DNA of 57,812 nt from a virus: the IMG/VR virus record IMGVR_UViG_3300028964_000004; one strand, 5' to 3'. The notes under the pieces were generated by a model. That model ran no database searches and was not told the origin of the DNA. It saw nothing but the letters and a program-made list of their open reading frames with translations. The translations under genes and the position numbers were made by a program. How positions within the stretch are numbered: position 1 is the stretch's first letter; every line of letters starts with the position of its first letter. Shown here piece after piece: positions 13,212-40,027 of the stretch.

Positions 13212-14081
13212 ATGTCAACAAACTCGATTCAAGTCCTAAAACAAACAGAATTGCTTGGACGCCAATTCACCGTTTACGGAACAGCCGAAAATCCGTTATT
13301 CCTTGCCAAAGATGTAGCAGAGTGTATAGACTATGCAAAGCGAAGTAATGGTAGTTATAACACTACTATGATGTTACAATCAGTAGATGAAGAAGAAAAG
13401 GTTGCCAACATTGTTGACACCCTCGGTGGAAATCAGCAAGTTTGGTTCTTAACCGAGGACGGTTTATATGAAGTCCTCATGCAATCCCGTAAACCGATCG
13501 CCAAACAATTCAAAAAGGGAGTAAAACAAATCCTTCACGAAGTACGAACTACTGGCGGCTACATTGCCACCCATCAAGACGACACTCCCGAGGAAATCAT
13601 GGCACGTGCCCTAACCATCGCACAAGCCACTCTTTCCAAAAGAGAGGAACGCCTAAAACAGCTCGAAGCCCAAACCGAGCAGCAGCAAGCCACCATCAAG
13701 ATTCAGACAGAGGAAATCAAGCAAGCAGCCCCGAAAGTCAGCTACTACGATAATCATTTGCAATCGGTCAACACGCTTACCTCCACACAGGTGGCTAAGC
13801 AAATCGGAATGGATGCGGAGAAGCTTCACAGGAAAATGAAAGAAATAGGTATCCTTTACAAACAGTCCGGGCAATGGATATTACATGCTCCTTATTCCAC
13901 TTGGGGATTACATTCTACCCGTACACAGACGCACACACGTTCTGACGGTTCGACAGGAACAAGTGTATATACAGTATGGACTACCAAAGGTGTGCGTTTC
14001 ATCATTGCCCTATATGAAAATGAATGGAACGTGAAGAAAGCCATCAAGCAGATAAAGAGTGAGGTGAATCCAGCCGCCTAA
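13212..14081 (+). CDS. Antirepressor: BRO-N domain plus KilAC-type C-terminal domain
   Basis: The segment FTVYGTAENPLFLAKDVAECIDY...WFLTEDGLYEVLMQSRKPIAKQFKKGVKQILHEVRTTGG is typical of BRO-N. The C-terminal half is KilAC-like. Confidence 0.75.
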   Translation: MSTNSIQVLKQTELLGRQFTVYGTAENPLFLAKDVAECIDYAKRSNGSYNTTMMLQSVDEEEKVANIVDTLGGNQQVWFLTEDGLYEVLMQSRKPIAKQFKKGVKQILHEVRTTGGYIATHQDDTPEEIMARALTIAQATLSKREERLKQLEAQTEQQQATIKIQTEEIKQAAPKVSYYDNHLQSVNTLTSTQVAKQIGMDAEKLHRKMKEIGILYKQSGQWILHAPYSTWGLHSTRTQTHTRSDGSTGTSVYTVWTTKGVRFIIALYENEWNVKKAIKQIKSEVNPAA

Positions 14082-14946: not shown

Positions 14947-15372
14947 TTATTCTTTTACCTCTTTTATATTTTGGGCAAGTTTTTCCCCCATACTAGTCAA
15001 GTTTAAAGTTGGAAGTAATACGGTACCACATCCGGATAAGGATGTTAGCATTGAAATATACCCTCGTATATAAGGAAATATAATTGCAGGAGCATTCATC
15101 GTAAAAAATGCTCCTAATCTTTCCATAGGAATACTCTCTCTAAATAGAAAATAAGCATCTATTATTAACTTAGCGTAAAAAAGTTCTTTCTCATCCTTAA
15201 CTTCCAATTCTAGCGTCAAAGTAAACTTATCTTTCCTCTTTATTCCACTAGGATTTATGTCAATGGATAAGGTATTATCTTTTTCAATTCCACCTTTTAT
15301 TTTTAATGAAGACTCTTTTATTAGATAATTATCTAATCTAAAATCTGATTTATAAACTTCAACTTCTTTCAT
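14947..15372 (-). CDS. SecB-like chaperone
   Basis: NAPAIIFPYIRGYISMLTSLSGCGTVLLPTLNL aligns with E. coli SecB [32 protein letters not shown]. The N-terminal beta-strand pattern is also similar. Confidence 0.75.
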   Translation of the reverse strand: MKEVEVYKSDFRLDNYLIKESSLKIKGGIEKDNTLSIDINPSGIKRKDKFTLTLELEVKDEKELFYAKLIIDAYFLFRESIPMERLGAFFTMNAPAIIFPYIRGYISMLTSLSGCGTVLLPTLNLTSMGEKLAQNIKEVKE

Positions 15373-15375
15373 ATT

Positions 15376-15747
15376 TTATGCTGCTAAAGCGTAATTTTCC
15401 CCTTGTAACCAACAATCCAAACGTATATAAAATACTTCTTCATTGTTAGTTTCATATCGTACAGGATTATCATATCCTACCTCTAAAAGTATTTGGTCAA
15501 CTTTACACAACCCATCATCTGATACAAAAATTATATCATAATCATTGTGCAAGCACTCAAATTCTTTACAGAAAACCAGTTCATGGTAGGCATATTCTTC
15601 ATTGTCTCTAAATTCTGACAATGGTTCAACTTCAACAATATAAGTATGATGGTTTGAAAAAGCATAACCACATTTAAATTTTAAAATGGGAAACTTTTCA
15701 TTCATTTTGTTCAAAAATGACTTGATTTTTTGTATTCTTTCATCCAT
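15376..15747 (-). CDS. Acidic hypothetical protein, 123 aa, ending in the SsrA-tag-like GENYALAA; candidate labile antitoxin
   Basis: Hand translation of 15379..15411 gives W L Q G E N Y A L A A, then stop. It lies between the HEPN and SecB-like genes with 2-3 nt spacers. Confidence 0.65.
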   Translation of the reverse strand: MDERIQKIKSFLNKMNEKFPILKFKCGYAFSNHHTYIVEVEPLSEFRDNEEYAYHELVFCKEFECLHNDYDIIFVSDDGLCKVDQILLEVGYDNPVRYETNNEEVFYIRLDCWLQGENYALAA

Positions 15748-15749
15748 AA

Positions 15750-16154
15750 TTATATTGAATTTAATTTTTGTCTTATTTCCTTCGCCAATTTAATACAAGC
15801 TTCACTTGCTTCCCTCGAAATCCTTTCCTCTTTATAATCGGAAGACTCTCTTTTTTCCTTTAATTGCTTAACTCCATTACGATAATCTTGTTCATCCCTA
15901 CACTTGTCAAATTTCAGACGTTTACATGTTTCTTCTATTAAACATTTATGTGAATGCCCAAAATACTTAGTACTACATAAACTGGCTTGATCTGACAGAG
16001 ACATTCCTTTTTTAATTAATTTATGACTCATTAATTGTAAACATGAATAATATGCAGGATGACATACTGAATCATAAAGGCAATGATTATACAATTTTTC
16101 AGCTGCATCTATATTTAAATCAGATTTTTCGTATAATTCATTCATGTTTATCAT
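15750..16154 (-). CDS. HEPN-domain protein (candidate toxin)
   Basis: 134 aa and all-helical. The pattern NIDAAEKLY..., HPAYYSCLQLMSHKL..., GHSHKCL..., LKEKRESSDY matches the HEPN (PF05168-like) layout. Confidence 0.6.
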   Translation of the reverse strand: MINMNELYEKSDLNIDAAEKLYNHCLYDSVCHPAYYSCLQLMSHKLIKKGMSLSDQASLCSTKYFGHSHKCLIEETCKRLKFDKCRDEQDYRNGVKQLKEKRESSDYKEERISREASEACIKLAKEIRQKLNSI

Positions 16155-22904: not shown

Positions 22905-23858
22905 TTATCTGAATATTCCTTTTAAGCCTCCATTAACAGCACCTCTTTTGGCTTCATCCGATGGATGTACATATACATCAAGGGTTGTACTTATATCCGA
23001 ATGTCCAAGAATTGTAGAGACTGTTTTAACATCAACTTTATTTTCGATCAGGGTACTTGCGAAAGTGTGGCGCAACCCATGAAATTTAATGCAATGATCC
23101 AACTTCACTTTTTCAAGGATGAATATTCGATAATATGTACGTAAAGTTCGAGGCTCAACAAACCCCTCAGAGCAGGAACAGACATAATACTCGGGCTTGC
23201 ATACGGCTGAGAACTTCTTCACAATAGGGAAAATGTCCTTAAGAATAGGTATGTATCTATCTGATGAATTAGTTTTAGGAGATCCTATCTCTACCACTGT
23301 CTTTTTCTTGTCGGTACCGATATTTTCAGGGAGATATATGCGTTCTATCGTTTTATTAACGTGAATTACCTTGCCAACAAGATCTACATCCTGCCATTGT
23401 AATGCACAAACTTCTCCTATCCGCATACCGGTGCATATAGTCAATAAAATGCCTAAATTGCGAGGGGATGGATTATCCATAACATAACTCACTATTTTAC
23501 GGTATTCTTCAGGCGTGTAGCGCTCTAATTTGGGCGTGACAACTTTATTCTTGGTTGGCCAAATAACCTTCCAGGTGGTGTCGGGAACATCGATATCCAA
23601 TTCGTCACCGGCGAAGCGAATAAGCATCTTTATGACGATTAGAATATCCGAACAGTATTTCTTTGATTTGGTCCCAGAATCAAGAAGCTCATAGAGAAAT
23701 GCTGTAACAACCTTTTTTCCCATGTTCTCTACGTCTGTATTACCAAACCGGGGAGCAAGTATATTCAAATATATAAGCTGATAACAGCTTAGCGTTGAGC
23801 CCTTAACTTGCCTTCTTTTAACAGGAAGCCACTCATTATATACGTCATTTAATTTCAT
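22905..23858 (-). CDS. Tyrosine recombinase (second integrase-family gene, 317 aa)
   Basis: Catalytic boxes GMRIGEVCALQWQDVDL, HGLRHTFAS and LGHSDISTTLDVYVH. Confidence 0.85.
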   Translation of the reverse strand: MKLNDVYNEWLPVKRRQVKGSTLSCYQLIYLNILAPRFGNTDVENMGKKVVTAFLYELLDSGTKSKKYCSDILIVIKMLIRFAGDELDIDVPDTTWKVIWPTKNKVVTPKLERYTPEEYRKIVSYVMDNPSPRNLGILLTICTGMRIGEVCALQWQDVDLVGKVIHVNKTIERIYLPENIGTDKKKTVVEIGSPKTNSSDRYIPILKDIFPIVKKFSAVCKPEYYVCSCSEGFVEPRTLRTYYRIFILEKVKLDHCIKFHGLRHTFASTLIENKVDVKTVSTILGHSDISTTLDVYVHPSDEAKRGAVNGGLKGIFR

Positions 23859-32260: not shown

Positions 32261-32578
32261 TTAAGCGAAATAATATATTTTGTTATTACCAGTACCAAGT
32301 TTTTTAACCCGTACTGTAGCTATAAATGGAAAATCTTCTTTGGAAATTTTACTAAGTGCCTCTTTTATCGGAGAAGAGTTAGTAAAGAATTTATATTCAG
32401 CTCCTTCATGCTTAATCTTGACTACGCAACGATTATCTCCATGTTGAGTTTTAACTCCAGATTCATAGTCAATTACCTCTATCTCACAGTTGAGTATATC
32501 GGTTATTGATATTTGCTGTACAGGGAAAATATTACGTCCCGCGTCAATGTCAATTCCAAAATCAGAAAACCTTTTCAT
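32261..32578 (-). CDS. Hypothetical beta-rich protein, 105 aa, overlapping the RT gene 3' end by 17 nt
   Basis: ORF track. It is not Avd-like, since it lacks a basic four-helix pattern. Confidence 0.6.
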   Translation of the reverse strand: MKRFSDFGIDIDAGRNIFPVQQISITDILNCEIEVIDYESGVKTQHGDNRCVVKIKHEGAEYKFFTNSSPIKEALSKISKEDFPFIATVRVKKLGTGNNKIYYFA

Positions 32579-33548
32579 TTTTGATTATAGTTTTAATTAA
32601 ATGCTTTGAATTACAATGTTTTGCCCATCCCATCCATGAACAAAGTGCTATCTTACAGTCGCAGGATGTAGTTTTCTTTTTGTTCAACACTGCTACTTTT
32701 CTACAGAAGTTTTTCTTGATACTTTTCCGCATTAAAATATGAGTGTGAAAGAAAACATAGCCAACAAAGTCAATTCCTCTATTATCAACCGGGAATATTT
32801 GATAATTGTCTTTCAAATCTAAATGAAGCTTATTATTCAGATATGTTTTTATATCTCCAAACAGGGAATGAAGTTTTTCTTTGTTTGATGAAAGTATTAC
32901 CAAATCATCAGCATATCTATAATAATACTTTATACGCCTTTCCTCTTTAAGCCAATGATCAAAGTAAGATAGATACAAGTTTGCAAAGAACTGCGAAAGA
33001 TAATTACCAATAGGTATTCCCGGAGCAGAATCAATAATACCGTCGAGTAACTCAAGAAGACGTTTGTCTTTAATCTTCTTTCGAACAATATTCTTAAGTA
33101 TCAAATGATCTATTGACGAATAGTATTTACGAATGTCCATTTTCAGGCAATATTTTGTATTTTGGATATCTTTCAAATCTTTCTTTAGATGTTTCATTAC
33201 TCCATGGATACCTCTGCCCTTAATACACGAATAAGTATGTGAAATAAATATTGGAGTCCATATATCTTCGAGGATATTCATTATCGCATGATGAACAACG
33301 CGATCACGGAAAGGGAGCCGGTATATTTCACGTTCCTTAGGATCATGTATGATAAAAGTTTGATACTCAGAAGTAACGTATTTATCTTCTGACAGTTCCT
33401 TATGAAGAGCATTTATGTTGTCATCCAATTCTTTCTCAAACTGAATGACCCCATAAGTATTCCCTTTGCCTTTTCTCGCTTTGGAATATGCTAGATAAAG
33501 ATTATCTAGACTACATATACGTGAATATAAATTCCCAAATCGTTTCAT
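32562..33548 (-). CDS. DGR-type reverse transcriptase
   Basis: Contains YRYADDLVILS (YxDD) and IGNYLSQFFANLYL (a DGR-RT signature). It is 328 aa and lies 108 nt downstream of the TR. Confidence 0.9.
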   Translation of the reverse strand: MKRFGNLYSRICSLDNLYLAYSKARKGKGNTYGVIQFEKELDDNINALHKELSEDKYVTSEYQTFIIHDPKEREIYRLPFRDRVVHHAIMNILEDIWTPIFISHTYSCIKGRGIHGVMKHLKKDLKDIQNTKYCLKMDIRKYYSSIDHLILKNIVRKKIKDKRLLELLDGIIDSAPGIPIGNYLSQFFANLYLSYFDHWLKEERRIKYYYRYADDLVILSSNKEKLHSLFGDIKTYLNNKLHLDLKDNYQIFPVDNRGIDFVGYVFFHTHILMRKSIKKNFCRKVAVLNKKKTTSCDCKIALCSWMGWAKHCNSKHLIKTIIKNEKVF

Positions 33549-33656
33549 AAGCCTTTGTTTCTAATAAGAGTCTTCGGATAAGCCCTACCAACACCGTTTG
33601 AATTGTTATTTTCCACCAAGAGGTGAGGTCCCTGCCCATTGGATTATTGTAACATA

Positions 33657-33724
33657 GGTGAGACCTGCTACCTGCATTCGCATTATCGTAATTCGAATCG
33701 TTGAAAGCGAAAGAGGAAGGAGAC
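33657..33724 (-). repeat. DGR template repeat (TR), 68 nt
   Basis: It aligns without gaps to both VRs, and every mismatch is at a TR adenine (coding strand). It reads SPSSFAFNDSNYDNANAGSRSHL in the VR frame and is AAY-codon rich. Confidence 0.9.
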
Positions 33725-33745
33725 AAGGGCAGGCAACCTTTAATC

Positions 33746-34120
33746 CTATGCTATCTGGATATCTTTCCAAATATCAATAAATTGCTTTGCTGCATATTCT
33801 GCAAGCTCGCATGTCCGAAATTTAAGGCGAGACCCGCTACCCGCATGCGCATAAGCGTAATCCGAAGCGTCGAAAGCGAAAGAGGAAGGAGACATTTCAA
33901 ACCAAGGATAATACTTATATTCATTATGATTATCCCAATCAGGAATCCATTCCTCGTTAAGGGCTTCTGCAATTACAATCATCTTATACTGTGCCTCAAA
34001 ATGTTTACGCATGTCAGTGGGAAGATTGGAAAAGTCAGGAACATCCGGTCTACCGGTCAACTTACGGGCATCATCAAAAGTTTTGACTAAATCTGTAATC
34101 TTTTTATTTTCTTTTTTCAT
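33746..34120 (-). CDS. DGR target protein 1, 124 aa (VR covers residues 77-99)
   Basis: ORF track. It contains VR1 and is a paralog of target 2, sharing (ALNE.W.PD...Y.(Y/W)YPWF...SPSSFAF...AGSGSRL...EL.EY..KQFID.WK). Confidence 0.85.
   Translation of the reverse strand: MKKENKKITDLVKTFDDARKLTGRPDVPDFSNLPTDMRKHFEAQYKMIVIAEALNEEWIPDWDNHNEYKYYPWFEMSPSSFAFDASDYAYAHAGSGSRLKFRTCELAEYAAKQFIDIWKDIQIA
33826..33893 (-). repeat. DGR variable repeat VR1
   Basis: 9 mismatches to the TR, all at TR adenines (TR positions 33659, 33666, 33673, 33678, 33684, 33686, 33693, 33698, 33702). Confidence 0.9.
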
Positions 34121-34136
34121 GATAATAAATATTTAA

Positions 34137-34607
34137 TTAAAGAATGAACTGTTTCCAAAGGTCAATGAATTGTTTACCACAGTATTCTGACAATTCTTTA
34201 TTTTTCAAACAAAGGCGAGACCCGCTACCCGCAAACGCATTAACGCAACCCGAATCGCGGAAAGCGAAAGAGGAAGGAGACCCATTAGTGACGAACCATG
34301 GGTACCATCTATAAACCCTATCATCACATACATCCGGTACCCAACCTTCGTTAAGGGCCTTGACAATGGTTGCCAACTTTTGATAAGCAATATCATGTTT
34401 AGTAAGACCGAGTTCCATCAACTTATTTTCATCAAGAGGACTGGTACTTAATTCGTGACATGCATCTTCATAGGTTTTAACTCTATCTGTTATCTTTTGA
34501 GAGAAAAAATCTTTTCCAAAAGACTCTTCCAGAATAGATTTTAACTCGCAGTAACCACTTCTGTAGAGTTCTCTAGCTTTTTGTTCACTGATTTGTAAAG
34601 TTTTCAT
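34137..34607 (-). CDS. DGR target protein 2, 156 aa (VR covers residues 110-132)
   Basis: ORF track. It contains VR2. Confidence 0.85.
   Translation of the reverse strand: MKTLQISEQKARELYRSGYCELKSILEESFGKDFFSQKITDRVKTYEDACHELSTSPLDENKLMELGLTKHDIAYQKLATIVKALNEGWVPDVCDDRVYRWYPWFVTNGSPSSFAFRDSGCVNAFAGSGSRLCLKNKELSEYCGKQFIDLWKQFIL
34214..34281 (-). repeat. DGR variable repeat VR2
   Basis: 11 mismatches to the TR, all at TR adenines. Confidence 0.9.
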
Positions 34608-34637: not shown

Positions 34638-34937
34638 CTATACATTAATATACTTATTCATTTGTATTGCAGATAAAGCCTGCTTTATTTCCGCTTTCGA
34701 ATAATAGATAGGAGAATTCCGGCCGGAACCTTTTCGTTTACCCTTGATCAACCCAACATCCTCCATTTGCCGTATAAGCTCGGTATCCAAATTCATATTG
34801 GCAAACCATCTGACCACTTCTCTCCTACTGATGCTATCTTTTGTCGGTTCATAGCATTTCACCGCATTCATATACCCTACTTGCACCATATCAGATATTA
34901 TATTCTTCAATTGGTATAAATCCAGCGTCACTTTCAT
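34638..34937 (-). CDS. Hypothetical protein, 99 aa, possibly DNA-binding
   Basis: ORF track. Basic C-terminal half. No firm motif. Confidence 0.6.
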   Translation of the reverse strand: MKVTLDLYQLKNIISDMVQVGYMNAVKCYEPTKDSISRREVVRWFANMNLDTELIRQMEDVGLIKGKRKGSGRNSPIYYSKAEIKQALSAIQMNKYINV

Positions 34938-35053: not shown

Positions 35054-35119
35054 TGGACGGTACAGGATTCGAACCTGTCTTTCTGATATGCAGCGTTTCA
35101 CCTAGAATACTTACCGCCC
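35054..35119 (-). tRNA. tRNA-like element 1 (66 nt): canonical acceptor stem and T arm, no canonical anticodon arm, G3:U70 and A73
   Basis: Minus strand: GGGCGGT AAGTATTCTAGGTGAAACGCTGCATATCAGAAAG ACAGG TTCGAAT CCTGT ACCGTCC A. An exhaustive hand scan found no 5-bp stem with a 7-nt loop. Confidence 0.45.
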
Positions 35120-35697: not shown

Positions 35698-35780
35698 TGG
35701 ACGGTAAAGGAGTCGAACCCTTCTCACTCGTTTTGAATTGGTTGCGCAACACGAAGCTCTAACCGATAAGCTAACCGCCC
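35698..35780 (-). tRNA. tRNA-like element 2 (83 nt): acceptor, D and T arms are canonical; the anticodon stem closes a 17-nt loop containing a UGC triplet; G3:U70 and A73
   Basis: Minus strand: GGGCGGT TA GCTT ATCGGTTA GAGC T TCGTG TTGCGCAACCAATTCAA AACGA GTGAG AAGGG TTCGACT CCTTT ACCGTCC A. Confidence 0.5.
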
Positions 35781-36403: not shown

Positions 36404-36781
36404 ATGGAAAGGGCTATAAACAAACGAATTAAAGAGATAATCAGATACTTAAATATATCTGATACCGAATTTTCGAAACGCATATCTATGCCTCAAAGTA
36501 CTATTTCTAATATATTCAATAGAGATAGTGATATTAAATATAGTATATTAGAATCAATACTAACCCAATTTGAATTTATTTCTTCAGAATGGTTATTACG
36601 AGGTGAAGGAAGTATGTTCAGATCAAATTCTAAAGTGGATAAAACAAATTATGAAAAACTACTGGAAGAATACACCCGTCAAACTGAAGAACTACTGTCT
36701 CAAAGAGACAAGGAAATTAGAGTCCTTCAATTAGAGAATGCCCGCCTCAAAGCAGAAGCAGCCACAAAAGAAGCTGTATAA
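36404..36781 (+). CDS. XRE-family HTH repressor (CI-like) with C-terminal coiled coil
   Basis: Contains INKRIKEIIRYLNISDTEFSKRISMPQSTISNIFN...WLLRGEGSMF. It is divergent from the early operon and adjacent to the integrase. Confidence 0.7.
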   Translation: MERAINKRIKEIIRYLNISDTEFSKRISMPQSTISNIFNRDSDIKYSILESILTQFEFISSEWLLRGEGSMFRSNSKVDKTNYEKLLEEYTRQTEELLSQRDKEIRVLQLENARLKAEAATKEAV

Positions 36782-37498: not shown

Positions 37499-38830
37499 TT
37501 ACGTCATTTGATTATTGAAAACATAATCGATTACCTTCCGGTTAGCTTCATTAATCATAGTGAAATCTTTCTCAATATAAATATCAGTGATTTTCATTTT
37601 GCTATCTACATGGTTTAGAGCTTCATGTACTACATACTTATCAATTTTCAAATCATTGCGTGCTATAGTTGCCCATGAATGACGGGCAGCATAAAACTCA
37701 AGATCATCTATCACTATATCTTTCCCCATTCGTTTCAGTTCCGCATTGATATCCTTCTCTATTTCCTTAAGACCTTTGTTTATAGCAGAATTAAAACAGG
37801 TGTGATTTACATACATTCTGCTAAACCGAAAAACTTTCTGCTTTGTCTTATCTTCATATTTTTCCATCAGATTTTTTATGAATGGGGTTACCTTTACATG
37901 AATCTCTGCTTTGTCATCCCTTCTTGTAGCTGTTTTTGTACGAAAGTACTTTATCATATTGTCTTTCAATTCATCACAATTATATAAATCGACAGAGTTC
38001 ATTCCTATCAAACAGAAAGATAATATAAAACAGTCCTTTGCTAAATTATACCGGCAATTCTGTTCTATGCTTTTTCTCATATTACTCCTGTATTTATATG
38101 GCAGATCTGCTATCATTTTAATTATAAAAGGTGGTATCGCCCTCTTTCTAGCCACCTCCTCCCGTGGTACTTTAAATTTAGCAAATGGGGCCCATGGGAT
38201 TCTTATCACTCCACGTTCTTCATCATTATATTTTAGTTTTGCTTGATTATATAGATGCCTAATGCAAGACGTATACTTGCATAACATGCAATTTGATGTT
38301 ACTCTCCTTCCCTTTGCAATAGCTTCTTTGTTGGCTTTCTCTTTTTTTTCTATTATAAATTTAGAAAAGTCGTTTAAGAATTTATAAGTTATCTCAGACA
38401 CACCGATTACTTCCCTTCCGGTAAATTCTATCATTGCTTTAATAGTGCATTTGTAATTAGAAGAGGTACCCTTTCTTCCTTCTGCATCCATTTTTTCAAT
38501 ATGTTCCCGGGCAAACTGTATAAAATCAATGTCTTTTTTATCCTCCTCTACTCTGGTTACAAATTCTACAACCTCTTCAATTGACATGGAATTGATAGAC
38601 AAAGATAATATATTGCATTTGGCTCGATATGAATCTATAATCTTATTAAGCTCGTCAAGGATTGATTGATTTTTTATTTTCATCCCTCTCGTCATATCTT
38701 CCTTCTTCACATAGATCGATGTTGCTATCCTTTTTATCTTTCTATTGTGAGTCACCCGTATCTTCACATTATATGTCCCATCTTGCCTCTTTCTGGAAGA
38801 GCACACCTCTATTCTGAATGTTGTTGCCAT
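37499..38830 (-). CDS. int: Tyrosine integrase, Bacteroidota type (443 aa, with N-terminal arm-binding domain)
   Basis: Contains YAARHSWATIARN and ALNHVD...ITDIYIEKD. Its size and N-terminus MATTFRIEVCSSRKRQDGTYNVKIRVTHNRK are typical of Bacteroides integrases. Confidence 0.85.
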   Translation of the reverse strand: MATTFRIEVCSSRKRQDGTYNVKIRVTHNRKIKRIATSIYVKKEDMTRGMKIKNQSILDELNKIIDSYRAKCNILSLSINSMSIEEVVEFVTRVEEDKKDIDFIQFAREHIEKMDAEGRKGTSSNYKCTIKAMIEFTGREVIGVSEITYKFLNDFSKFIIEKKEKANKEAIAKGRRVTSNCMLCKYTSCIRHLYNQAKLKYNDEERGVIRIPWAPFAKFKVPREEVARKRAIPPFIIKMIADLPYKYRSNMRKSIEQNCRYNLAKDCFILSFCLIGMNSVDLYNCDELKDNMIKYFRTKTATRRDDKAEIHVKVTPFIKNLMEKYEDKTKQKVFRFSRMYVNHTCFNSAINKGLKEIEKDINAELKRMGKDIVIDDLEFYAARHSWATIARNDLKIDKYVVHEALNHVDSKMKITDIYIEKDFTMINEANRKVIDYVFNNQMT

Positions 38831-39176: not shown

Positions 39177-39878
39177 CTAAGGATTAATAAGATTGATGAT
39201 ACCTTGCCTACCAATTCCGGTAATCTTTCTATGGTAGATAATATGGCCATTGTCAGCAACCTCTTGCTTTATATCAAACCAGCCAAGAGTAGCGTATTTA
39301 GTATATGGCACCCACGTCTGATTAACTTTGTATTGCACACCAAGTTCTTTTAAACGGTTATTAAGTTCAATTGCCGATTTAAGTCCCAATTCTTTGGCAA
39401 CTTCCGTACATGTATAGGTTTTATTTACATGAGTAAGAACAGCTACCTGTTTCTCGGCTTCAATGCGTGCAGATCGTTCTTCTTTTAACTTAGTGAGAAG
39501 CTCAATACCGAAATCCGGATTATTCAATATCTGGTCAATAACATTGTCAGTAGCATATATGCCATGCTTGCGGATAGATGGTAGCACTTCACCACAAACC
39601 CAATCTTGAAAAAGTTCTGCCTGTGATTTATCAGACCGCATAATAACTTTATAGAGATTTTGCTCACTAATGAAGGTTGCTTCTTGTGTTCTACCTAAAG
39701 AATCGATGACCTCGGTAAGAACTACCCCATCTGGTTTTAATCGCGATTTACAGTCACTCGTGTTCTTAATTTCGAGAACCCTACAAACATCTGCAAGGCA
39801 GAATAGTGGTTCTTCACTTGTTCCGGCTACTCTAACTTCACCAAACGATTCATTCTTAAAAATCTGAATGTTGTCCAT
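39177..39878 (-). CDS. Antirepressor 2: BRO-N plus KilAC-type domain
   Basis: Contains MDNIQIFKNESFGEVRVAGTSEEPLFCLADVCRVLEI...FISEQNLYKVIMRSDKSQAELFQDWVCGEVLPSIRKHG. The start is taken at the internal ATG at 39878 (the track ORF extends to 39944). Confidence 0.75.
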   Translation of the reverse strand: MDNIQIFKNESFGEVRVAGTSEEPLFCLADVCRVLEIKNTSDCKSRLKPDGVVLTEVIDSLGRTQEATFISEQNLYKVIMRSDKSQAELFQDWVCGEVLPSIRKHGIYATDNVIDQILNNPDFGIELLTKLKEERSARIEAEKQVAVLTHVNKTYTCTEVAKELGLKSAIELNNRLKELGVQYKVNQTWVPYTKYATLGWFDIKQEVADNGHIIYHRKITGIGRQGIINLINP

Positions 39879-40027
39879 AATAAAGTCTTTTCGTTCGAGG
39901 ACGTACCGCATTTCTTCATGCGGAGATAAAAAGACGAAAGCCATGCAGGGGGTTGCGACCTACACAGCTTTCTATATCTTAATCCTCTGATTAATTCTAA
40001 TTTTAATAAGTACAACCCAAAGCACTG

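Follow-up and report, generated by a model that had tools for sequence, protein, structure and literature searches.

A compact, Avd-less diversity-generating retroelement with two small target genes in a temperate Bacteroidota phage

Does a short intergenic repeat beside a reverse transcriptase gene supply sequence variation to two neighbouring phage genes, and by which parts could it do so? The locus that raises this question lies on the minus strand of the IMG/VR virus record IMGVR_UViG_3300028964_000004, which was analyzed over its whole stretch of 57,812 nucleotides (the window). A sequence-only reading had interpreted it as a compact diversity-generating retroelement (DGR) with a reverse transcriptase (RT), a repeat serving as template (TR) and two variable copies of it (VR1, VR2). 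Among prokaryotes and their viruses, DGRs are the one natural system known to target proteins for hypermutation. Their mechanism is known almost entirely from the element of phage BPP-1, which depends on Avd and diversifies a tail fibre with a lectin fold.

Read along the minus strand, the cassette follows the order T2, T1, TR, structured spacer RNA, RT and orf105. Target gene 2 (T2, 34137..34607, 156 aa, from the ORF list) belongs to the phrog_11581 family (E 1.7e-33), and its paralogue, target gene 1 (T1, 33746..34120, 124 aa), has its stop codon 21 nt before the start of the TR (33657..33724). The RT gene (32562..33548) is followed by orf105 (32261..32578, 105 aa), which overlaps the RT stop by 17 nt. 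The cassette is located beside the repressor and the integrase, approximately 15-20 kb from the tail genes, and probably forms a single transcript in an early operon adjoining the lysogeny switch. A megablast comparison of the window with INPHARED gave no match.

The three repeats (minus strand: TR 33724..33657, VR1 33893..33826, VR2 34281..34214) align over 68 nt without a gap, and all coordinates and counts of the sequence-only reading were found to be correct to the base. VR1 differs from the TR at 9 positions and VR2 at 11, and each of these 20 mismatches is at an adenine of the TR (12 A>G, 4 A>C, 4 A>T). Re-alignment had been named beforehand as a possible refutation of the adenine specificity; it gave zero non-adenine mismatches in the window. 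Thirteen of the 15 TR adenines are altered in at least one VR, and the A-free block of 22 nt at the 5′ end, GTCTCCTTCCTCTTTCGCTTTC, is identical across TR, VR1 and VR2. The chance that 13 variable columns all fall on the 15 adenine columns among 68 is approximately 3e-12 (hypergeometric). An independent repeat search recovered the same three copies as one family. The homology between VR2 and TR continues for 6 nt to position 34208 (TR 33651) and adds one A>T, so that VR2 is given here as 34208..34281. No third VR was found elsewhere in the window when both strands were scanned and any change at a TR adenine was allowed.

Both VRs lie inside open reading frames (33746-34120 and 34137-34607), and the TR is intergenic. 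In the frame of the targets the TR is read in AAY codons. Its mutagenesis window (33677..33702, minus strand) holds 11 adenines in seven recoded codons, AAC GAT. AAT TAC GAT AAT. AAT, which are four AAY, two GAT and one TAC; a stop codon cannot arise from them. This amounts to a repertoire of approximately 4e6 DNA variants or 3.2e6 peptides per VR. The TR is indeed short, as had been remarked, and this is a trait of the whole lineage (69-90 nt in relatives).

To see the repeats in the context of related phages we compared 38 related loci with the same architecture. The TR is conserved and unmutated in all of them and the VRs vary, with 12 TR variants versus 69 VR variants among the relatives. 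The 69 distinct TR/VR pairs contain 801 mismatches, of which 775 are located at TR adenines; 12 of the remaining 26 occur at the edge of the repeat. Non-adenine variants of the TR, namely C12T (L025, L034) and C9T (L026), recur in each of the two VRs of the genome concerned. When the window is compared over 2.7 kb with genomes that encode an identical RT protein, nearly all differences lie within the VRs. Over 2677 bp, 16 of the 17 sites that differ between the window and L082 are packed within 142 nt of the VRs, and 13 of the 14 sites that differ from L081 are in the VRs. TR, spacer and orf105 are 100% conserved between genomes with differing VRs. This natural variation shows a one-way flow of information from the TR to the VRs in nature.

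The same data speak to a more conservative explanation, according to which the repeats are ordinary paralogous sequence: a gene-fragment remnant and two paralogues that diverged through gene conversion or through point mutations and selection, beside an unrelated RT. T1 and T2 share 45% identity and are indeed paralogous, and recombinant T1/T2 mosaics found in the database mean that homologous exchange at the repeat does occur. Yet the differences concentrate on the adenines of a single copy, which itself stays unchanged in dozens of genomes, they are packed into the VRs between near-identical genomes, and the pattern at synonymous sites is not neutral. These observations have effectively refuted the explanation already, and we give it next to no credence.

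Not all adenines of the TR behave alike. The 11 upstream adenines are replaced randomly by C, G or T according to the substitution spectrum per column, whereas the four adenines at the 3′ end are replaced by G, G, G and T (A>G at TR 33673, 33666 and 33659, A>T at 33655). These four differences are shared by both VRs and by nearly all relatives, and therefore represent fixed differences and not random mutagenesis. At least 80-90% of 67 pairs have them, and they are kept in relatives whose RT is only 65-70% identical. The 3′ end of the TR, GCAGGTAGCAGGTCTCACCTA (33655..33676, minus strand), and its G-rich counterparts in the VRs, GCGGGTAGCGGGTCTCGCCTT (33824-33845 and 34212-34233, minus strand), thus resemble an IMH* and an IMH, respectively, as judged from their sequence.

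A terminator scan flagged a hairpin, GCGGGTAGCGGGTCTCGC, at the 3′ end of both VRs. We rejected it as unsupported: the DNA folding z-scores (0.6, -0.2, -0.5) are not above those of shuffled sequences, and no compensatory changes were found among relatives. Two of the fixed A/G differences would disrupt this hairpin in the TR.

The second component that had been claimed, an RT of 328 aa with IGNYLSQFFANLYL and YADD starting 108 nt after the TR, is present as described (32562..33548, minus strand; phrog_1423, E 6e-130; RVT_1). It contains both the GxxxSQ-type motif 4 (IGNYLSQ) and YADD, by which RTs of DGRs are recognized, and its ORF is intact with the catalytic motifs retained. The best match in the PDB is 8ub7_A, likewise a reverse transcriptase of 328 aa (E 3.2e-53, residues 2-317), which we take to be bRT of the Bordetella phage. 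The next-best match is the group II protein LtrA (E 2.8e-15), and the match to 8ub7 is stronger than those to group II and retron RTs by 38 orders of magnitude. Scores against NCBIfam models stay under the cut-offs for group II maturase (119.8 vs 300 bits), Drt3a (70.8 vs 200) and retron St85 (54.2 vs 235), and PADLOC reported generic RT matches only for this protein. By PDB matches and NCBIfam scores the RT consequently groups with DGR RTs and not with those of group II introns or retrons. That it belongs to another system (retron, group II intron or DRT/UG defence), with the TR/VR pattern arising from something else, can draw on partial matches to group II, Drt3a, retron and UG models, but these are far below the curated values, the 8ub7 match covers the full length, no intron RNA domain, msr/msd, maturase or endonuclease domain was found, and the upstream Rfam match is RT-17; we therefore regard this origin as virtually excluded.

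A further question is whether the element still works. It could be the relic of a formerly active DGR which lost retrohoming in this genome, so that the VRs are frozen. The comparison of deletions is informative here. The TR of the window is without a 6-nt unit, GCGAAT, that relatives have, and in the window as well as in L082 the unit is missing from both VRs too. Three genomes (L081, L083, L084) share the RT and the short TR with the window; their VR1 is short, but their VR2 is still long. The long VR2 beside a short TR would fit a relic; it indicates that VR2 can stay unrewritten for some time. In the window, however, VR2 has acquired the deletion of the TR, and the rewriting event therefore postdates that deletion. 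The background divergence between near-identical genomes is only approximately 0.04%, hence the changes in the VRs are very recent. Together with the intact RT and the complete conservation of TR, spacer and orf105 where the VRs differ, this makes a relic improbable. The differences between assemblies would instead suggest ongoing mutagenesis within one population.

The adenine-specific relation of TR and VRs, the DGR-type RT and the population pattern in relatives all support the DGR interpretation, and we hold with high confidence that the locus is a complete, recently active DGR of a temperate Bacteroidota phage of the Bacteroides type. Its mode of action could be as follows. The RT would bind the TR together with the spacer RNA and copy the TR to cDNA from a presumed priming site, misincorporating opposite the 11 adenines of TR 33677-33702. 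The cDNA would then replace the homologous stretch in VR1 or VR2, the direction being set by the G-rich 3′ element of the VRs (GCGGGTAGCGGGTCTCGCCTT), which is absent from the TR (GCAGGTAGCAGGTCTCACCTA). As the outcome, seven codons would be recoded, changing a single loop in T1 and in T2, the two small paralogues.

A further part of the element is the spacer between TR and RT. The segment 33555..33630 (minus strand) aligns with the whole model of the Rfam family RT-17 (RF03020), consisting of a hairpin CACC/GGTG followed by GGUG..UGGUAG..CGAA..CUC. The score in the window, 36.3 bits (E 1.8e-5 in 400 nt), is below the gathering score of 40.4. Seven of 13 related loci exceed it with 41.5-48 bits, at the homologous place and ending at the RT start codon. 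In the covariation analysis 97% of cells are paired, and 52 double-sided changes were counted versus 14.5 +/- 3.2 in shuffles. The spacer is a structured, covarying RNA that resembles RT-17. Our literature search found no paper linking RT-17 to DGR function. A long-range pairing of the TR flanks within a 221-nt RNA was considered as well and rejected (z-score 0.58, pairing lost in relatives).

The absence of an Avd-like gene, noted from the sequence alone, extends from the cassette to the entire window: no Pfam family for Avd (PF05635) or HRDC was found within +/-10 kb or among the 47 small ORFs of the window. Because Avd, HRDC or another recognized accessory gene is missing, the mechanism of BPP-1 is not transferable unchanged. 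Two other ORFs were rejected as accessory genes. The HEPN ORF at 15750-16154, the only hit with a resemblance to Avd, lies 16 kb from the DGR in a TA-like module, where its neighbours are a SecB-like ORF and one of 123 aa; orf99 (34638-34937) is basic (pI 9.55) but conserved in the closest relatives only.

A better candidate is orf105, which comes immediately after the RT gene in 76 of the 80 viral loci though the other neighbours change; this constancy is the argument for regarding it as a candidate accessory factor. It is found in 52 of 80 loci of Bacteroidota genomes, where its occurrence goes with that of the target family (Fisher p = 4e-8), and it also occurs beside the RTs of DGRs with other targets. 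The AF2 model (pLDDT 89) predicts a β-barrel with the topology b1-b2-b3-helix-b4-b5. Foldseek returned mostly OB folds, which are not significant (E >= 0.26, TM 0.3-0.4), and a search of the PDB by sequence gave no match. With a pI of 7.75 the protein is not basic, unlike Avd. The 138-aa ORF after the RT of a sister lineage aligns with it at an hhalign probability of 45%, over 31 residues only. From its synteny we infer that orf105, modelled as an OB-like barrel and probably coupled to the RT in translation, may substitute for Avd. Nothing relevant on an OB-fold accessory of DGRs was found in the literature search.

What, then, is diversified? VR2 corresponds to T2 codons ~109-131, leaving 24 codons after it. 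Among 993 database relatives of T2 the variability is concentrated in the VR, and in the protein alignment the hypervariable columns are confined to FAFxxSxxxxAxA, ahead of an invariant AGSGSRL. The AF2 model of the target (pLDDT 78) is mostly helical, with a pLDDT below 50 for the VR segment. No C-type lectin fold was seen, as Foldseek against the PDB gave no match (best E 5.5). Searches of the targets against Pfam, NCBIfam, PADLOC and PDB sequence profiles returned nothing, and Foldseek against BFVD returned uncharacterized gut-phage proteins only. Since a GG..GA.G.A...IGSRL-type motif is common to longer homologues of the targets and a 483-aa target protein, the targets may nevertheless contain a cryptic, reduced C-type lectin fold.

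Regarding the role of T1 and T2, two readings have to be weighed. They could be parts of the virion, such as small distal tail proteins or receptor-binding adaptors, and the DGR would serve host-range switching as in BPP-1. The targets of viral DGRs are mostly tail proteins (PMC8144416). Longer homologues without a DGR match the C-terminus of phrog_5302, annotated "tail protein", over approximately 45 residues, and the Versailles homologue carries the same annotation. For the 483-aa protein mentioned above, whose VR is at the C-terminus and ends in IGSRLC, the alignment to the T2 profile is weak (hhalign E 8e-4, probability 24%). On the other side, the "tail" annotation rests on those 45 residues only, and T1 and T2 are encoded in the early operon by the repressor and the integrase, far from the tail genes. 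Homologues without a DGR in four unrelated phages are located among early, replication or recombination genes, and neither a signal peptide nor a hydrophobic segment was found in T1 or T2. Members of the very large phrog_11581 family (4213 clusters at 50% identity) occur in the early gene region of many phages of gut Bacteroidota, crAss-like phages among them. A place in the virion is a possibility to be taken seriously, and we hold it only tentatively. We favor the reading that T1 and T2 are non-structural early proteins which would bind a variable ligand of the host or of a rival.

Compared to BPP-1, the element combines the familiar with the deviant. The two RTs, with 8ub7 taken to be bRT, are homologous from end to end (E 3e-53) and equally long with 328 aa; the transfer from TR to VR is adenine-specific and AAY codons avoid stops; VR and TR diverge at their 3′ ends in the manner of IMH and IMH*; a structured spacer RNA separates TR and RT gene; and both phages are temperate. 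BPP-1 has Avd and a single target, the C-type-lectin tail-fibre protein Mtd, whereas this element is without Avd and has two small targets of 124 and 156 aa. Also unlike BPP-1 are the 24 codons past the VR, the location of the targets in the early region and the conserved 105-aa ORF after the RT. The repertoire of BPP-1 is far larger than the ~3e6 peptides per VR found here. The TR measures 68 nt compared to 134 nt in BPP-1 (PMC6199706).

With target genes, TR and RT on one strand and without avd or HRDC, the cassette resembles Architecture A1 as it appears in the main text of Wu et al. 2018 (PMC5758913), which is defined by this core order and the absence of avd, HRDC, MSL and CH1. We judged the presence of CH1 by size and charge, and no such ORF flanks the RT except T2. 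In the account given there, CH1 of the lineage has 160-169 aa and is acidic (pI 4.7), unlike orf105 with its 105 aa and pI of 7.75, and orf105 is not described in that main text. According to the same text, architecture A comprises 29% of DGRs, two targets occur in 13%, 26-29% of the catalogued DGRs are without an Avd or HRDC accessory, Lineage 3 is without avd (Lineage 3A being confined to Bacteroides and its relatives), and internal VRs as well as motif-less targets (the "Ig1" class) are reported (PMC5758913). Neither orf105, the structured spacer RNA nor the fact that Avd-less DGRs with several targets are already catalogued (PMC5758913) had appeared in the sequence-only reading.

Two further comparisons concern DGRs of Bacteroides and its phages. 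The DGR of Quimbyvirus belongs to a gut phage infecting Bacteroides as well and has a target encoded away from the structural module (PMC8008677), for which Benler et al. 2021 proposed a role in phage-host conflict (PMC8008677). Its targets contain C-type lectin domains, one of these targets is encoded next to the tail genes, and three frames are needed to encode its split RT (PMC8008677); in contrast, both targets here are small and RT-adjacent, with no lectin fold detected. The Bacteroides DGRs of Macadangdang et al. 2024 (10.1101/2024.11.15.621889) share the host group and lie mostly in prophages, and experiments in Bacteroides in that work verified the adenine-specific mechanism. In their survey the VRs are "uniformly" C-terminal in C-Lec folds, the elements studied have Avd-like genes, and 98% of the targets fall into five domain groups (pilin-like, TaqVP-like, CotH-like and others); T1 and T2 are outside all target groups described in the text of that study (10.1101/2024.11.15.621889).

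Taken further, the locus could represent a distinct and widespread DGR type of Bacteroidota phages and prophages, in which the OB-like orf105 and the RT-17 RNA replace the Avd pentamer in cDNA synthesis or homing and, at the same time, the targets are small, early, intracellular non-lectin proteins, for example binders of variable host defence or takeover targets. We consider this joint proposal rather unlikely as it stands.

The mechanism of DGRs is well known; in the present case Avd is absent, a small unstudied gene nearly always follows the RT, and the targets are of unassigned role. Compact and clearly active, the element exemplifies the poorly understood Avd-less class. It provides a natural experiment, in which a deletion in the TR was caught part-way in its spread to the VRs, and it offers a conserved RNA motif together with a candidate replacement for the accessory gene. 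If it is true that the targets act inside the cell, the uses of DGRs by phages would widen beyond host-range switching.

The cassette lies on the minus strand in the order T2, T1, TR, RT. The target genes T2 (34137-34607, 156 aa) and T1 (33746-34120, 124 aa) carry the variable repeats VR2 (34281..34214) and VR1 (33893..33826), and are followed by the template repeat TR (33724..33657) and, with its start 108 nt past TR, by the 328-aa reverse transcriptase (RT) ORF (32562-33548) with the motifs IGNYLSQFFANLYL and YADD. This gene order, claimed by the sequence-only reading, was recovered from the ORFs, and its repeat coordinates and mismatch counts proved exact on re-alignment. Both VRs align with TR gap-free over 68 nt, with 9 mismatches in VR1 and 11 in VR2. 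All 20 differences, namely 12 A>G, 4 A>C and 4 A>T, fall on TR adenines, and no non-adenine column is mismatched in the window. As also claimed, 13 of the 15 TR adenines are altered in at least one VR, and a 22-nt 5' block free of A is identical in the three copies. By our own arithmetic the chance of 13 variable columns all hitting the 15 A columns among 68 is about 3e-12. A scan permitting any change at TR adenines found no third VR elsewhere in the window.

The best solved relative of the RT is a 328-residue reverse transcriptase (entries 8ub7-8ube; E 3.2e-53, residues 2-317), which we take to be the Bordetella phage bRT; group II intron RTs come next at 1e-15 to 1e-13. The RT family is phrog_1423. 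Against the NCBIfam models of group II maturases, retron RTs and Drt RTs the protein scores far under the curated cut-offs.

At least 595 IMG/VR loci encode a relative of this RT, and the best 80 were inspected. Three repeats in unchanged order, each marked by that 22-nt block, occur in 38 of these 80. TR is almost constant among related loci while the VRs are all different: 69 distinct TR/VR pairs hold 775 mismatches at TR adenines compared to 26 elsewhere, 12 of the latter at the first base of the repeat. Where TR varies at a non-adenine position, the two VRs of that genome bear a faithful copy of the change: C12T in L025 and L034, C9T in L026.

The TR of the window is 6 nt shorter than in most relatives through the lack of one GCGAAT unit, and this deletion is shared by its two VRs. 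The locus L082 has an identical RT protein and short TR, and both its VRs are short with other alleles at the adenine sites. L081, L083 and L084 share the RT protein and the short TR as well, with a short VR1 and a VR2 that still has the ancestral extra 6 nt. The deletion is thus caught midway in its passage from TR to the VRs, and these three intermediate-state genomes offer a natural way to date the separate retrohoming events of the two targets. Over 2677 bp from orf99 to orf105, 16 of the 17 differences between the window and L082 lie within 142 nt of VRs, as do 13 of the 14 to L081 within VRs, a divergence of about 11% inside the VRs against 0.04% outside. The sole non-VR difference from either locus over this stretch is at 33898 (TGAAAT versus TAAAAT), 5 nt upstream of the 5' edge of VR1. 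The deletion states and the VR-confined differences among near-identical genomes point to recent activity. Because RT homology, the adenine pattern in related genomes and this recent activity agree, the locus is very probably a diversity-generating retroelement (DGR), as originally proposed.

The column-by-column spectrum differs along the repeat. Opposite the adenines of TR 33702-33677 the VRs hold a mixture of C, G and T; opposite those at 33673, 33666, 33659 and 33655 they show one fixed base each (G, G, G and T) in at least 80-90% of pairs. One of these four 3' changes is synonymous (GCA>GCG), and all four also occur in relatives with an RT only 65-70% identical. Judged from these comparisons, the fixed differences are the signature of IMH, the element at the VR 3' end, versus IMH*, its TR counterpart, and not random misincorporation. 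The effective repertoire comprises 11 adenines in seven codons (AAC, GAT, AAT, TAC, GAT, AAT, AAT), which gives 4^11 DNA variants and 15^4 x 4^3 = 3.2e6 peptides per VR; stop codons cannot arise from this mutagenesis.

The 108-nt spacer between TR and RT matches the Rfam family RT-17 over the full model with 36.3 bits and, for a search space of 400 nt, an E-value of 1.8e-5. This falls short of the 40.4-bit gathering score, which is passed at the homologous position in 7 of 13 related loci. Two spacer helices are 97% paired in an alignment of 32 loci, with 52 double-sided changes compared to 14.5 +/- 3.2 in shuffled and at most 11 in slid controls. The RT-17 match and the covariation therefore indicate that the DGR RNA has a conserved structured spacer, like that of the Bordetella phage BPP-1. 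We found no literature report of RT-17 in connection with DGRs.

A search of the 10 kb to either side of the RT and of the window's 47 small ORFs found neither the known accessory protein Avd (PF05635) nor HRDC, which bears out the claim that no Avd-like gene lies between target and TR. The ORF orf105 (32261-32578, minus strand, 105 aa) overlaps the RT stop by 17 nt and is found at exactly that place in 76 of 80 viral loci, where orf99, orf124, orf132 and orf202 are not conserved. Its 93 database relatives, all of about 105 aa, are from Bacteroidales. RVT_1 genes are closely followed by diverged members in other cassettes too, such as L087, with a 483-aa target, a C-terminal VR and a confirmed TR/VR pair, and L089 (Paludibacter), with three tandem small targets. 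In 80 loci from species-representative Bacteroidota genomes, orf105 and the target family occur together in 41, orf105 only in 11, the target only in 4 and neither in 24 (Fisher p = 4e-8). From this linkage we regard orf105 as a candidate accessory factor of an Avd-less lineage. AlphaFold models orf105 at pLDDT 89 as a barrel of five strands in which a helix separates strands 3 and 4, an OB topology; OB-fold nucleic-acid binders make up most of the top Foldseek matches, none of which is significant (E >= 0.26). No description of orf105 was found in the literature.

Genomes of Prevotella, Alistipes and Bacteroides (L118, L122, L126, L128-L130, L133, L137, L140, L162) harbour a sister DGR lineage with the order target (about 438 aa), RT (about 342 aa), 128-aa ORF, 138-aa ORF. 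The 138-aa ORF shares an MAKF.ELG start and a QFT end with orf105 at an hhalign probability of only 45%, and L087 and L090 have a homologue of the 128-aa ORF between RT and orf105. Just downstream of the terminase genes and 16 kb from the DGR, the window further contains a module (14947-16154, minus strand) of a HEPN ORF (15750-16154), a 123-aa ORF (15376-15747) and a SecB-like ORF (14947-15372), which looks like a toxin-antitoxin-chaperone unit carried as a moron.

The window comprises the genome of a temperate phage, circularly permuted; 200-350 kb contigs contain this element in integrated form, with the integrase (37499-38830) at the host junction. INPHARED holds no near-identical record. 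A CI-like HTH gene (36404-36781, plus strand) faces the minus-strand early operon, and the DGR follows a few genes downstream of its start, with genes of nuclease, HNH and replication type after it. Two tRNA-like genes on the minus strand, placed between lysogeny switch and DGR, have a common 46-nt 3' half: one at 35698-35780 is a clear Rfam match (37.2 bits) with an odd four-base ARAGORN anticodon 'tgcg', the other at 35054-35119 (29.7 bits) is just over the Rfam threshold of 29 and gave no ARAGORN call. The early region also holds a second tyrosine-recombinase gene (22905-23858, minus strand, 317 aa; PF00589 in the identical L082 gene), in whose place related contigs have another recombinase. 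Two Bro-N/KilAC (ANT) antirepressor-type genes lie on opposite strands (13212-14081, plus; 39177-39944, minus).

T1 and T2 are paralogues of phrog_11581 with no match in Pfam, NCBIfam or PADLOC, and their named relatives are from Bacteroides fragilis. The family comprises 4213 clusters at 50% identity (E <= 1e-3), tandem fusions included. When database relatives are aligned, variable columns occur only in FAFxxSxxxxAxA, directly before an invariant AGSGSRL, and about 24 conserved residues come after the VR. The mosaic relatives P0106, P0110, P0173, P0181 and P0194 join a T2-type N-terminus to a T1-type tail, or the reverse, which implies recombination between the paralogues at the shared VR. 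The T2 AlphaFold model (pLDDT 78) is mainly helical with the VR at low confidence; it has no match in PDB and, in BFVD, matches only uncharacterised gut-phage proteins, several of crAss-like viruses among them.

Homologues without a DGR, at about 30% identity, occur in Bacteroides phage Versailles, BI-TP1, LoVEphage, crAss-like cr56_1 and Dulem virus 41. Their neighbours are in every case genes of the early, replication or recombination type, with no RT nearby. These homologues are longer by a 25-residue insertion, which together with the VR-like loop is similar to the final 45 residues of the phrog_5302 'tail protein' and to the VR at the C-terminus of the 483-aa L087 target. On this ground the module that is diversified may derive from, or be akin to, the VR domain of a tail protein in reduced form, and it may be a cryptic C-type lectin variant. 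The Versailles homologue (ON453897.1 10181-10762; L085 6001-6582) is labelled 'tail protein' in spite of its place between NinB and the replisome organiser; the only support found for the label is that 45 residues match the C-terminus of phrog_5302. That the targets are virion or receptor-binding components is a reading we hold as somewhat doubtful; the terminase, head and tail genes of the window are distant from the DGR. A non-structural early function, in which the targets would bind a variable host or competitor molecule, we put at even chances, which leaves a small probability for some other role. Quimbyvirus is a precedent for a non-structural phage DGR target (PMC8008677), although its target has a lectin domain.

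The sequence-level consequences of misincorporation and VR replacement are seen directly in the repeats; co-transcription, priming site, integration pathway and the role of orf105 we infer. Transcription would run through T2-T1-TR-spacer-RT-orf105, and the RT would bind the RT-17-like spacer. The cDNA would be made across TR with misincorporation opposite the 11 adenines and would take the place of the corresponding homologous segment in VR1 or VR2, with a G-rich element at the VR 3' end giving the direction.

Avd-less DGRs (architecture A, 29%), two-target DGRs (13%), internal VRs and motif-less targets have been catalogued, as has one Avd-less lineage confined to Bacteroides and relatives (PMC5758913). 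Some VR domains are uncharacterised (Roux et al., PMC8144416), and a large Bacteroides survey describes C-terminal C-Lec VRs and Avd-like genes (bioRxiv 10.1101/2024.11.15.621889). The cassette is a member of a widespread, compact, Avd-less Bacteroidota DGR lineage, of which the candidate accessory orf105, the RT-17 spacer and the small early-region targets are the features of note.
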